Assembly: GCA_902588615.1 (NCBI GenBank)
Contig: CACIPV010000001.1
Span: forward strand, 90,682-154,681
Origin: an uncultured Alphaproteobacteria bacterium
GTDB taxonomy: Bacteria > Pseudomonadota > Alphaproteobacteria > HIMB59
Reading direction: 5' to 3'
Length of the DNA: 64,000 nucleotides
Shown here: positions 2,933 to 60,080 of the stretch, piece after piece
Layout: each line of letters opens with the position of its first letter
Numbering within the stretch: the first letter of the stretch is position 1
Translations under genes and position numbers: made by a program
The notes under the pieces: model-generated
Databases searched by the model: none
What the model was told of the DNA's origin: nothing
What the model saw: only the letters and a program-made list of their open reading frames with translations

Positions 2933-3286
2933 TCATTTTGAACATTTAAACCAAGCTTGTAAGTTTTCTCTTGGATAATCCCAGACAATATTAATTATTT
3001 CATTTAAAGGAAGAAAAATAATTAATCGGATATCTTGGTCATATAAATAACTTATTACTTCATCATTTTTTTGTATGAGGTTTAATTCTTCTGTTTTACC
3101 ATCAAGAAAGTTGATAGTAAGTTTACCTTTAGAACCTGATATTTTTAAAACATGAGAGCCTAAACTTTCGACGTAATCACTCATATAAAAAAATTCATCA
3201 TCTAATGGTTCACAATTATATTTTTTTCCAAAAAATCCCCAACTTAGATTTGGGACCAATAATAATAAGATTAAGAAAATTTTCAT
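2933..3286 (-). CDS. Small secreted hypothetical protein
   Basis: Signal peptide MKIFLILLLLVPNLSWG; AGGAG Shine-Dalgarno just upstream on minus strand; Cys near each end. Confidence 0.75.
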   Translation of the reverse strand: MKIFLILLLLVPNLSWGFFGKKYNCEPLDDEFFYMSDYVESLGSHVLKISGSKGKLTINFLDGKTEELNLIQKNDEVISYLYDQDIRLIIFLPLNEIINIVWDYPRENLQAWFKCSK

Positions 3287-3436
3287 GACTCCTAAATTTA
3301 AATATTAACATATATATTTATTAGTTTAGAAACGTTATTTATCGTTATCTAGATTTAGACTTTAAAAAAACTGATTGAAAGAGTTTTTAAATAATATACT
3401 AAATACGTTGGGTTTACTGACCTTTTTGATAAAGAA

Positions 3437-3497
3437 AAGGAGAAACACGAAGATGGCCTCGTGCTGGAATTGGTAGACAGTCTGGACTTAAAATCCA
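3437..3497 (+). repeat. attL-like direct repeat: leader plus 5' half of tRNA-Leu(TAA)
   Basis: 60/61 identical to 5925..5985 (45 bp exact at 3453..3497); weaker homology extends back to about 3390. Confidence 0.95.
3455..3497 (+). pseudogene. tRNA-Leu(TAA) 5' fragment
   Basis: GGCCTCGTGCTGGAATTGGTAGACAGTCTGGACTTAAAATCCA then diverges; no variable arm, T arm or CCA. Confidence 0.92.
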
Positions 3498-3580
3498 ATT
3501 TAAAATTTCAATTTATTTACTCACAATCAGCTAATTTAAATACTCTTTTTAAGTTTTTTAAATTACTTAAGTGTAAGATA

Positions 3581-3621
3581 TCGTAATTTAATCGCAATAA
3601 TTGACTATTGTTGGTCGTAAT
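3581..3621 (+). repeat. Putative integrase arm-type sites, left set
   Basis: TCGTAAT 3581, TCGCAAT 3592, TCGTAAT 3615. Confidence 0.65.
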
Positions 3622-3730
3622 TTATTTATGAAATATATATTTCAAATCTTGGGGATAATATTTAGAAATTTCCACAATAAATTTTTTATGAATACTAAAA
3701 AAGATATTACTTAAATGTTATTGTTAATTA

Positions 3731-4351
3731 ATGAATCAAAATTTTGATATTAATAAAACACCTCTTCTTTTTCAGGATTATGATAGCATTAATTCAGTAA
3801 GAAATATGAGTAGTCTCTACTTCATCAATTATTACAAAGAACCATACTATCATAAGCAGGCGGGTATAATCACCCAAATGTGTATTCCAACTTTTGTCCA
3901 TCCTGAGCAGTGTTTTGTAGGTTGGAACTATGACGAAAGAGAGAACAGCGAAGAAGATGCAAAGTATCTAGCCAATAAGATGCATTTTTCTCAGTGTGAC
4001 TTTAACTTTGTAAGGTCAAATAATAGCTCACTTAATGTTGGCTATTGCACCGCTAATAAAGGTGAATACAAACATAAAGATGATTTACATGTTTTAAGTT
4101 ATTTAAGCTGCGATACATTTGATGCATGGATAAAAGCAATTCACTCCTCTAGAAAAAATTCTTTTAGATTTGGCTTTAAGATTGAATTTAATCAATATGC
4201 GAGAGATGTTTTTTTAGGTCAATTGATAATGAATCATATTGGCGACCTGGATGAGAAAGAATATCTTGACTTTAATATAAAAAATATTGAAATACAATTT
4301 AGCACATATGAGAATTACTCTGGATTTCAATTATCTCCTCAATCAGCTTAA
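3731..4351 (+). CDS. Hypothetical protein (island cargo)
   Basis: 206-aa open frame in AT-rich DNA; no recognisable motif. Confidence 0.7.
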   Translation: MNQNFDINKTPLLFQDYDSINSVRNMSSLYFINYYKEPYYHKQAGIITQMCIPTFVHPEQCFVGWNYDERENSEEDAKYLANKMHFSQCDFNFVRSNNSSLNVGYCTANKGEYKHKDDLHVLSYLSCDTFDAWIKAIHSSRKNSFRFGFKIEFNQYARDVFLGQLIMNHIGDLDEKEYLDFNIKNIEIQFSTYENYSGFQLSPQSA

Positions 4352-4646
4352 ATTCGTATTTTTATTTGTTCTTTGGTCTTATTGTGCTTTGAGGATATTT
4401 GATAATACCTTTACTACTACTTTGGTATCATTAACACAGGGTTTTTACCACCCTCACGGGCTTACTAAATGGTGGTATTATATACAAATGATGCCTGGTT
4501 GGTGGATAATGCACCTATTCGTAATAGCTTTCATCCCCCTCATGTTAAATAAAAAATTTAGCTCACAATTACAAAAAAGTAATCTTAAAAAAGTTAATTA
4601 CTTTTTTTGGTTTATATTTGGACCATTATTGATAATTTTATTTTAA
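4308..4646 (+). CDS. Hypothetical membrane protein (island cargo)
   Basis: About three hydrophobic Trp/Phe-rich segments; ATG at 4308 preferred over TTG at 4287. Confidence 0.6.
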   Translation: MRITLDFNYLLNQLKFVFLFVLWSYCALRIFDNTFTTTLVSLTQGFYHPHGLTKWWYYIQMMPGWWIMHLFVIAFIPLMLNKKFSSQLQKSNLKKVNYFFWFIFGPLLIILF

Positions 4647-5218
4647 TCAAACAAATTTAAAATAGCTCCCATCAAAGCTTTTACTAAAGTTATAATAATA
4701 TCCAGAGTAATCCCAACAATATTCAAGATAAAGCCATACCAATCAGCGGCATAGAAAATACTCACCACAGGCAATAAGGCAAATATGAGCCCCTTAAAAC
4801 CAAACCAAAAACTAGTATCCATACTCAGAGATAAAAACCATTTTGGAATTGAAAGCAAATATGTAAATCCTTGAAGGTATAAATAACAAATCAATAAAAT
4901 CTCAAAATTTGATTTCGTTTCACCATATCTATTAAACTTATAGGAACTAGGCCTGTCTTTATTTTTTTTATCGTATTTTAATTTTCTAATCTTTCTAGAA
5001 GTTCCGATGGGCTGTTTGTTAATAAAATCGTCAATATCGTCTCTAATTGAAACTAAATAAGTAGTGTCATAATCTTTACCGTTAAAATTAGCTCTATAAA
5101 AACCAGTCTCATCCTCTTTGAAAATTTCAATTCCTTTATAGATTTCAAATAATTTCTTATCATAAGATAAATTTGCATTTTTTTGTGGAGGGTCTTTGTA
5201 TAAATCTTCTTCAGTCAT
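4643..5218 (-). CDS. Hypothetical membrane protein (island cargo)
   Basis: Charged N-terminal half, hydrophobic C-terminal half with 2-3 TM segments. Confidence 0.7.
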   Translation of the reverse strand: MTEEDLYKDPPQKNANLSYDKKLFEIYKGIEIFKEDETGFYRANFNGKDYDTTYLVSIRDDIDDFINKQPIGTSRKIRKLKYDKKNKDRPSSYKFNRYGETKSNFEILLICYLYLQGFTYLLSIPKWFLSLSMDTSFWFGFKGLIFALLPVVSIFYAADWYGFILNIVGITLDIIITLVKALMGAILNLFD

Positions 5219-5227
5219 TTATTAAAT

Positions 5228-5731
5228 TTAAAAGAAAAACCATTTCTTTTTTAATTTCTTATCAAATTCTTCTTGAAACTCCAGAAATCTCACCCAAGCA
5301 TACTCATCATTATATTCTTCACTTCCATTTAAAATATTTCTCATAGCCTCTCTGCCCATATCATATGCCTTATGGGCAATGTCTTTAATGATTTTTGCAT
5401 CGTCATCTTTCATTTCATCTATTTTTGAAACACCAATAAAACCACTAACAATAGTTTCCATTAACTCTGGGTTTTCATAATGGCTTTCAAAAAAATAAAT
5501 TCTTGCTTGCTTTTGATTAGAAATATCAAAGTAATTACATGTAGCAGAAACAGCTCCGGCTTGAAAACAAGCCTTTAAAGAGAATCTAGTTTGAGACTCA
5601 GATTCGTTTAAATCCTCATCAGACTTATATTTTTTAGTTAAAATATTTTTTAAATTAAAAGATTGATTTTGAAGTTTTTCAAATCTCTTAACAGTTTTTG
5701 CCAATTCCTCTAATTTTTCATTTAAAGACAT
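5228..5731 (-). CDS. Hypothetical protein (island cargo)
   Basis: 167-aa helical ORF ending KKKWFFF. Confidence 0.7.
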   Translation of the reverse strand: MSLNEKLEELAKTVKRFEKLQNQSFNLKNILTKKYKSDEDLNESESQTRFSLKACFQAGAVSATCNYFDISNQKQARIYFFESHYENPELMETIVSGFIGVSKIDEMKDDDAKIIKDIAHKAYDMGREAMRNILNGSEEYNDEYAWVRFLEFQEEFDKKLKKKWFFF

Positions 5732-5797
5732 TTTAAATATAATTTAATTCAAAATTATTAATGTACAAGTTGCACTGGATTTTATATTAGAAAATTG

Positions 5798-5837
5798 TCG
5801 TAATCTGGTCGCAATAAAAATCTATATTTATCGTCAG
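5798..5837 (+). repeat. Putative integrase arm-type sites, right set
   Basis: TCGTAAT 5798, TCGCAAT 5809, TCGTCAG 5831; spacing matches the left set. Confidence 0.65.
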
Positions 5838-5942
5838 GGAATATTTTATAAAATTATGTGGTTGCAAGATTCAAGAAATGATATACTCATTACGATTGAG
5901 TTTACTGGCCTTTTAAGCGATTTGAAGGAGAAACACGAACAT

Positions 5943-6030
5943 GGCCTCGTGCTGGAATTGGTAGACAGTCTGGACTTAAAATCCAGTGGGATTTATTCCC
6001 GTGGCGGTTCGAGTCCGCCCGAGGCTACCA
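5943..6030 (+). tRNA. tRNA-Leu(TAA)
   Basis: GGCCTCG/CGAGGCT acceptor stem, CTGGA-CTTAAAA-TCCAG anticodon arm, long variable arm, GGTTCGAGTCC, encoded CCA. Confidence 0.98.
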
Positions 6031-6041
6031 TTTTATTAAAC

Positions 6042-6359
6042 ATGATCATTGTTGAAGTAACTTTTAAAATAGACCCCTCCTTAACAAAGGAAATGTTAAC
6101 AGAAAAATTTTTAGAAACTGCTCCGATTTACAGAACCACACCTGGTTTGATAAAAAAAAACTATATATCAGATCTTAAAAATAATATTGCAGGTGGCATA
6201 TACTGTTTTGATAATATGTTAAATGCAAAAAGATGGTTCGATGATGAAAGAATTGAATGGATTACAAATAGATACTCGAAACCTAAGATAAAATTCTATG
6301 AAAATTTTGTAGTAGTTGACAATGAGTCTAAGAAAATTATATCTGATGACAAATTGTAA
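6042..6359 (+). CDS. YdhR-like putative monooxygenase (dimeric alpha/beta barrel)
   Basis: PGLIKKNY and AGGIYCF motifs; true start taken as ATG 6042, after the tRNA. Confidence 0.75.
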   Translation: MIIVEVTFKIDPSLTKEMLTEKFLETAPIYRTTPGLIKKNYISDLKNNIAGGIYCFDNMLNAKRWFDDERIEWITNRYSKPKIKFYENFVVVDNESKKIISDDKL

Positions 6360-58738: not shown

Positions 58739-60080
58739 CTGAAACTACTTTTATTATTTGTTTTTTTAATTTATTAAGAGTAATTACTTTTATATTTCTT
58801 TTATGATATTGCAAGTTTACTCTTAATAGTGGCTCTGTTCCAGAGGGACGAACATTGTAATAAATATTTAAATTTTTTAATAGATTATTAAGTTTCTTAT
58901 AAATATTTTCTTGATTTAAGTAAAATCTTTCGCGATCTATTTTTTGATTTATATTTAATTCTTCAAGTAAATCTATACCATTTCTCAATACTGATAACTT
59001 TTTCTTCTCTTTAAGCATTAATGTGAGTAATCTAATAGCAGTTGCCATTCCATCTCCAATTAAAATGTCATCTTTAAATATAAAATGTCCTGATGGCTCG
59101 CCTCCAAAGAAATATTTATTATCTAGAATTTCCTTTAAAATATTTTTATCACCAACTTTTACACGTTTTAATTTAAGACCTAATTTCTTTAATGCTATAT
59201 CAAGACCATGATTTGCAATTTCGTTAGTAACTAACACAGAGCCTTTTTTTATCTTTTTTTTATATAAATAATATTTGGCAAAAATAAAAATTATTTCTTC
59301 TCCATTTAAAACATTACCTTTTTCATCAATAATAGTAACTCTATCGCCATCTCCATCTAAACAAATTCCGATATCACATCTTTTTTTTTTAACCAAATCT
59401 GATGCTTTATGAGGAAATAAAGAGCCACAGTTTTGATTAATATTTGTGCCAGAGGGATTATTACCAATGGTATGCAAGTCTAAACCTAATTCAAACAAAA
59501 CCTCTGGTGCTACCTTATAAGAAGCTCCATTTGCACAATCTAACGTTACTTTTAATTTACTATAATTAAGATTTCTATCTGCACTATGTTTAAGTGCTTC
59601 GGAATATCTTCCTAATGCGTTTTTAAGTCTTATAGCTTTGCCATAACTTGACTGTTTTATTTTAAAGTTATCAAAGTCGAAATTAAAAAATAAATCTTCA
59701 ATTTTATTTTCCTCCTCTAGAGAAATTTTTAAACCTTGATTGGAAAAGAATTTTAGTCCGTTATCTTTGTATGGATTATGAGAAGCCGTGATCATTACTG
59801 AAAAATCTGCTCTTAATGACTTACCTAAAACTGTCAGGGCCGGAGTGGGTAAAGGCCCTACTAAAATTACATCAATTCCCATTGATAAAAAACCTGATGT
59901 TAAAGCTGGTTCAAATATATATCCGGATAGTCGAGTATCTTTATTGATAACCACTCTTGAGATTGAATTTTTCTTTCTCAAAACAAGCGCCGAAGCTTTA
60001 GCCAGTTTAAGCACGTTTTCAGGTGTTAGAGGATACTTTCCTACCTCACCTCTGATCCCATCAGTACCAAAGAGCCTCAT
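58728..60080 (-). CDS. glmM: Phosphoglucosamine mutase
   Basis: FGTDGIRG, TASHNP, DGDGDR, GGEPSGH, RPSGTEP. Confidence 0.95.
   Translation of the reverse strand: MRLFGTDGIRGEVGKYPLTPENVLKLAKASALVLRKKNSISRVVINKDTRLSGYIFEPALTSGFLSMGIDVILVGPLPTPALTVLGKSLRADFSVMITASHNPYKDNGLKFFSNQGLKISLEEENKIEDLFFNFDFDNFKIKQSSYGKAIRLKNALGRYSEALKHSADRNLNYSKLKVTLDCANGASYKVAPEVLFELGLDLHTIGNNPSGTNINQNCGSLFPHKASDLVKKKRCDIGICLDGDGDRVTIIDEKGNVLNGEEIIFIFAKYYLYKKKIKKGSVLVTNEIANHGLDIALKKLGLKLKRVKVGDKNILKEILDNKYFFGGEPSGHFIFKDDILIGDGMATAIRLLTLMLKEKKKLSVLRNGIDLLEELNINQKIDRERFYLNQENIYKKLNNLLKNLNIYYNVRPSGTEPLLRVNLQYHKRNIKVITLNKLKKQIIKVVSDAC

Follow-up and report, generated by a model that had tools for sequence, protein, structure and literature searches.

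The window analysed here is a stretch of 64,000 nucleotides of contig CACIPV010000001.1 (forward strand, positions 90,682 to 154,681; assembly GCA_902588615.1) from an uncultured alphaproteobacterium of the HIMB59 lineage. Its tRNA-Leu(TAA) locus carries an insertion of 2,488 bp, for which both empty and alternative alleles exist in relatives of the same genus. We consider the insertion to be an integrase-less cassette in the anticodon arm of the tRNA, likely inserted by a borrowed tyrosine integrase whose own element, a temperate phage or a small integrative element, has the same target, and assign this reading a probability of about 0.6. The half-tRNA at its left end is an exact duplicate which ends at one and the same base in two genomes, the window and relative G089, and this is not a matter of chance.

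Boundaries, alleles and leaders of the cassette

The element is delimited by two direct repeats of 61 nt (3437-3497 and 5925-5985), identical in 60 of 61 positions (98%) at an offset of 2,488 bp. Only 43 bp of the repeat belong to the tRNA, the remaining 18 bp being leader sequence.

3437..3497, plus strand: left repeat, attL; 18 bp of leader and tRNA-Leu positions 1-43 (3455-3497), with the anticodon loop CTTAAAA at 3487-3493
5943..6030, plus strand: attR, the intact tRNA-Leu(TAA); element-side 5' half up to 5985 (loop at 5975-5981) and host 3' half

The left tRNA copy ends after TGGA-CTTAAAA-TCCA, one base before the end of the anticodon stem, and the complete tRNA gene stands downstream of the element, identical to the 88-nt tRNA-Leu gene of same-genus relatives. 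Gapped similarity continues beyond the repeat, back to approximately 3370 and 5856, and has its source in two related leaders. None of the four open reading frames (ORFs) between the repeats matches a recombinase in Pfam, NCBIfam, PADLOC or PHROGs. Sequence comparison thus bears out the initial annotation in its repeat geometry with an intact downstream tRNA, in the end of identity within the anticodon arm and in the recombinase-free interval.

Among 70 genomes of the same genus, 53 contain a match to the tRNA query, and 49 of these are usable, i.e., include the whole tRNA as well as the anchor gene upstream of it; G094 and G083 (other tRNAs) as well as G016 and G081 (contig ends) were left out. 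At 45 of the 49 loci the site is empty, with 52-152 bp between upstream gene and tRNA and no inserted gene, and a second tRNA copy occurs in a single relative, G089. The initial annotation had named identical four-gene content in all relatives as the outcome speaking against it; the 49 loci hold empty and alternative alleles instead. The window element itself was not found in any other of 187 genomes of the order, two candidates being scored per genome.

After removal of the element in silico, the window agrees with G009 at 903 of 992 alignment columns and, judged by this comparison, G009 carries the exact pre-insertion allele. Because the flank of G009 matches the left copy (157/168) rather than the right leader (107/171), the left copy comes from the host and the right leader from the element. 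The right leader is related to that of G089 (137/169). The G089 cassette measures 3.7 kb, is integrase-less as well, has a repeat of only 44 bp, and its tRNA fragment ends at the end base of the window element. Its cargo, a 645-aa methyltransferase-like and a 473-aa specificity-subunit-like protein, both below NCBIfam cut-offs, is unrelated to that of the window.

Inserts without a tRNA fragment were also observed at this locus. They comprise 5.6 kb with envelope/glycosylation-looking genes between anchor gene and tRNA-Leu in G004 (L052), 1.5 kb of hydrophobic-looking coding DNA before tRNA-Leu in G091 (L082), and an insert with a 364-aa methyltransferase-like gene left of attL in G089 (L065).

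The element is flanked by the following features:

2933..3454, no strand assigned: 117-aa gene (2933-3286, minus strand) and leader L, outside the 2,488-bp element
6039..6359, plus strand: ydhR-like gene (PF08803, E 1.3e-8) of the right host flank, located 3' of the tRNA in G009 and many relatives

The 117-aa gene with leader L is restricted to the window and G009 among the usable relatives. Leader L, a relative of leader R (104/171), does not belong to the common type of 52-56 bp; gene and leader are likely what remains of an earlier element of this family. G002 carries a cargo-free foreign leader on its tRNA-Leu. These two cases suggest that the leader stayed on the tRNA when earlier elements lost their attL. 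In the right leader of the window, an extended -10-like sequence, TGATATACT, is located at 5879-5887, and the motif TGnTATA(C/G)T is present in this leader as well as in G089 and G002. Because of this motif, and since the old promoter is now 2.5 kb off, the element-borne leader presumably acts as a promoter.

Predicted arm sites and the search for a helper integrase

At both ends of the element the heptamer TCG(T/C)AAT occurs in tandem, 11 bp apart:

3581..3621, plus strand: left-arm predicted arm-type sites; TCGTAAT at 3581, TCGCAAT at 3592 (11 bp apart) and TCGTAAT at 3615
5767..5942, plus strand: right arm and element-borne leader; TCGTAAT at 5798, TCGCAAT at 5809 and a reverse site at 5889-5895; arm common to the G089 cassette

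The window contains no further tandem of this kind, nor does the remainder of the 973-kb assembly. Counted from the loop, the pairs are positioned at +88/+99 and -177/-166 in the window and at +86/+97 and -177/-166 in G089, and the right arms of the two cassettes share 83% identity over 180 bp. The accessible text of PMC3203893 describes predicted arm-type sites as core-flanking pairs of 11-bp repeats. In line with this description, the TCG(T/C)AAT pairs are predicted to be arm-type sites of a tyrosine integrase.

Matching period-11 pairs in both arms were found in 8 of 19 tRNA elements of the order (5/10 integrase-less, 3/9 with integrase). None of 3,000 random pairs passed the same test; of 342 non-cognate pairs 13 did, eight of them at the same tRNA. 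Integrase-bearing tRNA elements of the order reveal a like paired-arm architecture, each with a motif of its own. In 373 sequence records (3.3 Mb, redundant) the tandem motif appears in 10 distinct contexts, six of which lie beside the tRNA-Leu(TAA) loop; the other four had been retrieved by the motif itself and are unrelated. A match in G058 (inside coding sequence) and three 48-bp matches in the sister family (no protein support) were likewise rejected.

The assembly (973 kb, 36 contigs, 75% complete) encodes two PF00589 genes, best assigned to XerC/XerD and below curated cut-offs, and G061, which is 99% complete, also has only two. The target tRNA-Leu(TAA) was matched in 91 of 116 sister-family genomes. 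Genome G141, retrieved by the tRNA fragment and not by the arm motif, carries a 36.5-kb T7-like prophage at tRNA-Leu(TAA) (L323-L325, C5:61652-98428) with T7-like RNA polymerase, portal and capsid genes, a full tRNA-Leu of its own, and a 413-aa PF00589 integrase, the relatives of which among 50,697 phage records are only about 25% identical. Its junctions share CTTAAAA alone with the target, and therefore crossover took place in the 7-nt anticodon loop. Going by G141, crossover in this loop, as proposed in the initial annotation, is the norm at tRNA-Leu(TAA) in this order. The prophage arm contains TCGCAAT-N4-TCGCAAT. An integrase 95% identical to that of G141 is encoded in G152 (L326, C11), and G048 has an integrase-less element of approximately 2.3 kb, both arms of which are homologous to the arms of the G141 prophage. 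The G141 prophage shows the type of helper, not the true helper of the cassette, which was not found.

A degenerate scan for tRNA-Leu in viral sequences was followed up for 120 of about 1,900 stretches and gave 119 full tRNAs and no fragment beside an integrase; in the same set the arm motif was present in 0 of 4 loci checked, and no real BLAST match to the arms occurred in the 120. Ten matches of a viral leader-motif scan were all chance matches in coding sequence.

Several side observations concern the tRNA itself. The empty tRNA-Leu site of G163 (L330) has an anticodon arm with the variant letters of the prophage, as if phage tRNA sequence had been left in the host gene. In G095 (L329:1651-1823) the anticodon loop of tRNA-Leu(TAA) is split by an insert of about 190 nt, a match to the Rfam group I intron family RF00028 (61.3 bits, gathering score 50) missed by the fast gathering scan. 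An anticodon-loop insert of this length also splits the tRNA-Leu(TAA) genes found in G104 (L327), G115 (L328) and G048 (L091), in all three directly behind a phage-type attL, and appear to be element-carried.

According to the mechanism we propose, a circle with an attP of the order arm sites, promoter, tRNA 5' half, CTTAAAA loop and arm sites would have recombined within the 7-nt loop. The host promoter and 5' half would have been left on the left side, pointing into cargo A-B, and the element leader would now drive the tRNA. Through the paired TCG(T/C)AAT sites, a cognate integrase may act in trans when a phage infects or a prophage is induced. If attL and cargo are lost later, the tRNA would keep a foreign leader, which would be the case in G009 and G002.

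Several results weigh against this proposal. No circle, excision junction or attP was found in the contigs of seven runs, although contigs cannot show absence. No integrase is encoded in any of the 63 sequence stretches compared, and the assembly is only three-quarters complete. Viral scans with the exact tRNA half and the arm motif returned 0 matches, and three matches of a metagenome scan are chance or unrelated. The G141 prophage brings a whole tRNA rather than a half, and no match to its integrase is found in IMG/VR or in any of 70 genomes belonging to the window's family. Its arm sites are arranged at -87/-76 with reverse sites at +119/+131, compared with -177/-166 and +88/+99 in the cassette, and because of this different layout its integrase is probably not the cognate one. 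Taken alone, the left-arm similarity to G089 is weak: 47 of 2,000 shuffles score at least as high, and so do 12 of 3,000 windows of the genome. The motif was already known when the paired-arm test was devised, and G089 falls below the strict threshold of this test. Finally, a consensus promoter scan lists no site in the leader. Of the element-borne 5' half and promoter put forward in the initial annotation, the element origin of the right leader stands, and the promoter found no counterpart in the scan.

Cargo genes and alternative origins

Four intact ORFs of 206, ~112-119, 191 and 167 aa occupy the interval between the repeats:

3731..4351, plus strand: cargo A, 206 aa; no family match; opens three integrase-less cassettes, each at a different tRNA
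4308..4646, plus strand: cargo B, hydrophobic protein of ~112 aa; ORF-finder start at 4287, homologues aligning from the ATG at 4308
4643..5218, minus strand: cargo C, 191 aa, C-terminal half hydrophobic; no family match
5228..5731, minus strand: cargo D, 167 aa; no family match

None of the four reaches a family cut-off in the four databases named above, and 0 of 5 proteins gave a PHROG match. An integrase profile search of the element was negative, and family searches found no transfer genes. Cargo A occurs in 3 of 187 genomes; in each, it opens an integrase-less cassette together with cargo B, in the orientation of the tRNA. In G075 this module lies in a 2.0-kb 5'-type cassette at tRNA-Arg(ACG), with CCCGTAT pairs in both arms, and in G012 in a 1.7-kb 3'-type cassette at tRNA-Gly(GCC); the adjoining cargo B homologues share 63-67% identity. 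For cargo A, a PDB sequence search gave no real match, IMG/VR contained no relatives, and matches in the Atlas were weak, with recognition below threshold; its AlphaFold model is unreliable (pLDDT 47). Among 36 candidates for cargo D, only two are near-identical homologues.

Most of 3471-5958 is covered at ~98-99% identity by seawater contigs from two studies, one with runs X1 and X2 and the other with run X3; one example of 1,685 letters has 20 differences. Under a 31-base rule, no contig bridges a junction. Host flanks have little or no cover in these runs where the cargo is covered, which was not used as evidence. The X1-X3 contigs end clipped at window positions 3470 and 5958-5959 (3 and 9 letters). 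This clipping, the sole basis here, suggests that the tRNA D-loop of the seawater cassette has one T fewer than the two of the window; both variants are found in hosts.

A serious, if less probable, alternative to insertion by a borrowed integrase is that an integrase-bearing element lost its integrase in place, as in a classical cis-mobilizable element (CIME), and is now static or moves in cis or by homologous recombination of its flanks. This route is defined in the accessible parts of PMC5704250 and PMC3146451, and autonomous elements of 4.6-8.3 kb with the integrase just behind the arm pair exist in the order. Of two contigs in run X5, one of 1,447 bp departs from the left arm at 3642, and one of 2,202 bp has about 1.7 kb of other DNA before 3637; these alleles diverge at ~3640, where the autonomous elements of the order place the integrase, and could represent a longer parent. 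An autonomous parent was found in none of the other 186 genomes of the order. Decay in place is opposed by two cassettes with unrelated cargo which are both integrase-less at fixed arm-site offsets, by the intactness of all four ORFs, and by the presence of the cargo A-B module in integrase-less cassettes with three different att sites.

Gain of the cassette without any integrase, with RecA recombining donor-allele DNA at one end and the other end being joined inside the tRNA, is improbable. It would be in accordance with the phosphate islands of HIMB59, attributed to homologous recombination in the accessible text of PMC10734472, and with the fragment-free inserts of G004 and G091; it is at odds with the identical end base of two independent cassettes, the paired arm repeats and the loop-only crossover of G141. 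Even less probable is insertion by the host XerC/D recombinases, in the manner of an integrative mobile element exploiting Xer (IMEX), an element type defined by a dif-like site bound by XerC/XerD. The assembly has just two tyrosine recombinases, and these are indeed Xer-like, but Xer enzymes act at dif-like sites without distant arm repeats, whereas the distant tandem repeats found here differ between elements and track the integrase-bearing ones. The host integrase that the initial annotation had listed among possible helpers is thus judged unlikely. Least probable of all is a chimera from amplification or assembly. In its favour are the incomplete assembly in 36 contigs and the fact that no public contig spans the whole element; against it, the cargo is contiguous with the arms in independent seawater runs at ~98-99%, and the same junction base recurs in a second genome.

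Relation to known systems and significance

Published systems are compared here as described in the accessible portions of the sources. CIMEs are att-bounded elements without integration genes (PMC5704250, PMC3146451). Like them, including the module-less ssrA islands of Dehalococcoides, the cassette is without integration and transfer genes and keeps both attL and attR at the sequence level, and it likewise forms a stack, sharing its target gene with the probable remains of an earlier insertion. It differs from CIMEs in that it displaces the tRNA 5' half and must bring a leader, measures only 2.5 kb, has no autonomous neighbour that could move it in cis, and has arm sites which are conserved across unrelated cargo and match a prophage arm motif.

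Islander lists 159 of 3,919 islands (4%) with a 5' fragment (PMC4383910). The cassette resembles this class in that an intact tRNA of the same orientation follows its 5' fragment at a distance of at least 2 kb, and in its predicted crossover at the anticodon subsite. Islander requires a tyrosine integrase gene and rejects integrase-less islands, and because of this requirement the cassette would be filtered out. Pelagiphages integrate at tRNA-Leu(TAA), tRNA-Cys and tRNA-Arg, several of them complementing the 5' end (10.1101/410191). HTVC019P-type pelagiphages (HTVC105P, HTVC109P) share the tRNA-Leu(TAA) target and an attP with the 5' half up to ...CTTAAAATCC, and in HTVC109P the phage part complements the split tRNA (10.1101/410191). 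They differ from the cassette as 40-kb phages of Pelagibacter with an integrase of their own, and no TCG(T/C)AAT tandem was found in their retrieved att regions. The weight that the initial annotation gave to replacement of a 5' half was therefore overstated: the geometry is real, has been published for islands and pelagiphages, and is common in this order.

Tycheposons and additive flexible islands are marine, tRNA-anchored cargo cassettes with partial tRNA repeats, and most island material is integrase-less (10.1101/2020.12.28.424599, PMC4119200, PMC11796062). Tycheposons carry their own integrase and often replication genes, neither of which was found in the cassette, and arm sites on integrase-less cassettes are not described in the accessible texts. 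For SAR11, PMC11796062 reports islands in which tRNA repeats are partial and integrases almost absent. Satellites like the phage-inducible chromosomal islands (PICIs) encode integrase, replication and packaging-interference genes, whereas the cassette has no PHROG match at all. Integron cassettes are defined by attC hairpin sites and the IntI integrase; the ends of our cassette are tRNA halves with direct-repeat arms, no model search for attC having been made. The cassette resembles a CIME or a non-autonomous integrative cassette of the rare 5'-replacing polarity; judged by the genes that define tycheposons, satellites and integrons, it is none of these.

The accessible text of the HIMB59 island paper (PMC10734472) does not mention integrases, and that of PMC12379486 and 10.64898/2026.08.25.747067 contains nothing on these cassettes. 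A description of the HIMB59 cassettes or their arm sites was not found in the literature searched, most subscription papers lying outside the search. Each component has a precedent, 5'-replacing islands as well as integrase-less CIMEs; the paired TCG(T/C)AAT arm sites are new here.

Related elements occur at other tRNAs. The genome of the window has a second 5'-type integrase-less cassette, with two genes, at tRNA-Arg(TCG) (C4:57227-57270 and 58915-58989; L094:5228-6990; offset 1,688 bp), which is probably older, as fragment identity is 91% and a search for paired arm motifs gave none. At tRNA-Gly(GCC), G144, G060 and G062 (L130, L132, L260) show stacked integrase-less cassettes of 0.6-1.3 kb between tRNA 3' halves, and three tRNA-Gly(GCC) cassettes have paired arm motifs. 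An integrase-less 1.1-kb tRNA-Gly cassette of G062 has TCCGACA arms in common with an integrase-bearing element of G110. Six of 20 integrase loci (L123 in G078, L126 in G174, L127, L131, L133, L134) lie beside a 5' tRNA fragment, of Ala(GGC), Ser(GCT), Gln, Leu(CAA) or Arg(ACG), and 5'-type integration is therefore common in this order. In the sister family, G052 (L057) and G176 (L332) have 5'-type inserts of 1.5 and 5.7 kb at tRNA-Leu(TAA) with worn fragments, in which neither an integrase nor a TCG(T/C)AAT tandem was found.

A broader and more tentative proposal is that HIMB59 runs an integron-like system without an integrase of its own. Cassettes of 0.6-3.7 kb would mimic the attP arms of temperate T7-like phages and small integrative elements, be moved in trans by a passing helper and swap cargo between att specificities; at tRNA-Leu, each insertion would replace the promoter of an essential tRNA, and the old promoter would come to front the cargo. 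In two genes of the flanks, UUA accounts for 17 of 31 and 8 of 22 leucine codons. The flexible gene pools of streamlined marine bacteria are large and their integrases few, and how tRNA-anchored cassettes arrive in them is an open question; island finders which require an integrase miss such cassettes. Arm motifs may serve as a barcode tying an integrase-less cassette to the clade of its helper, which makes mobilisation in trans testable, and through the 5'-type geometry foreign DNA can come to control an essential tRNA.

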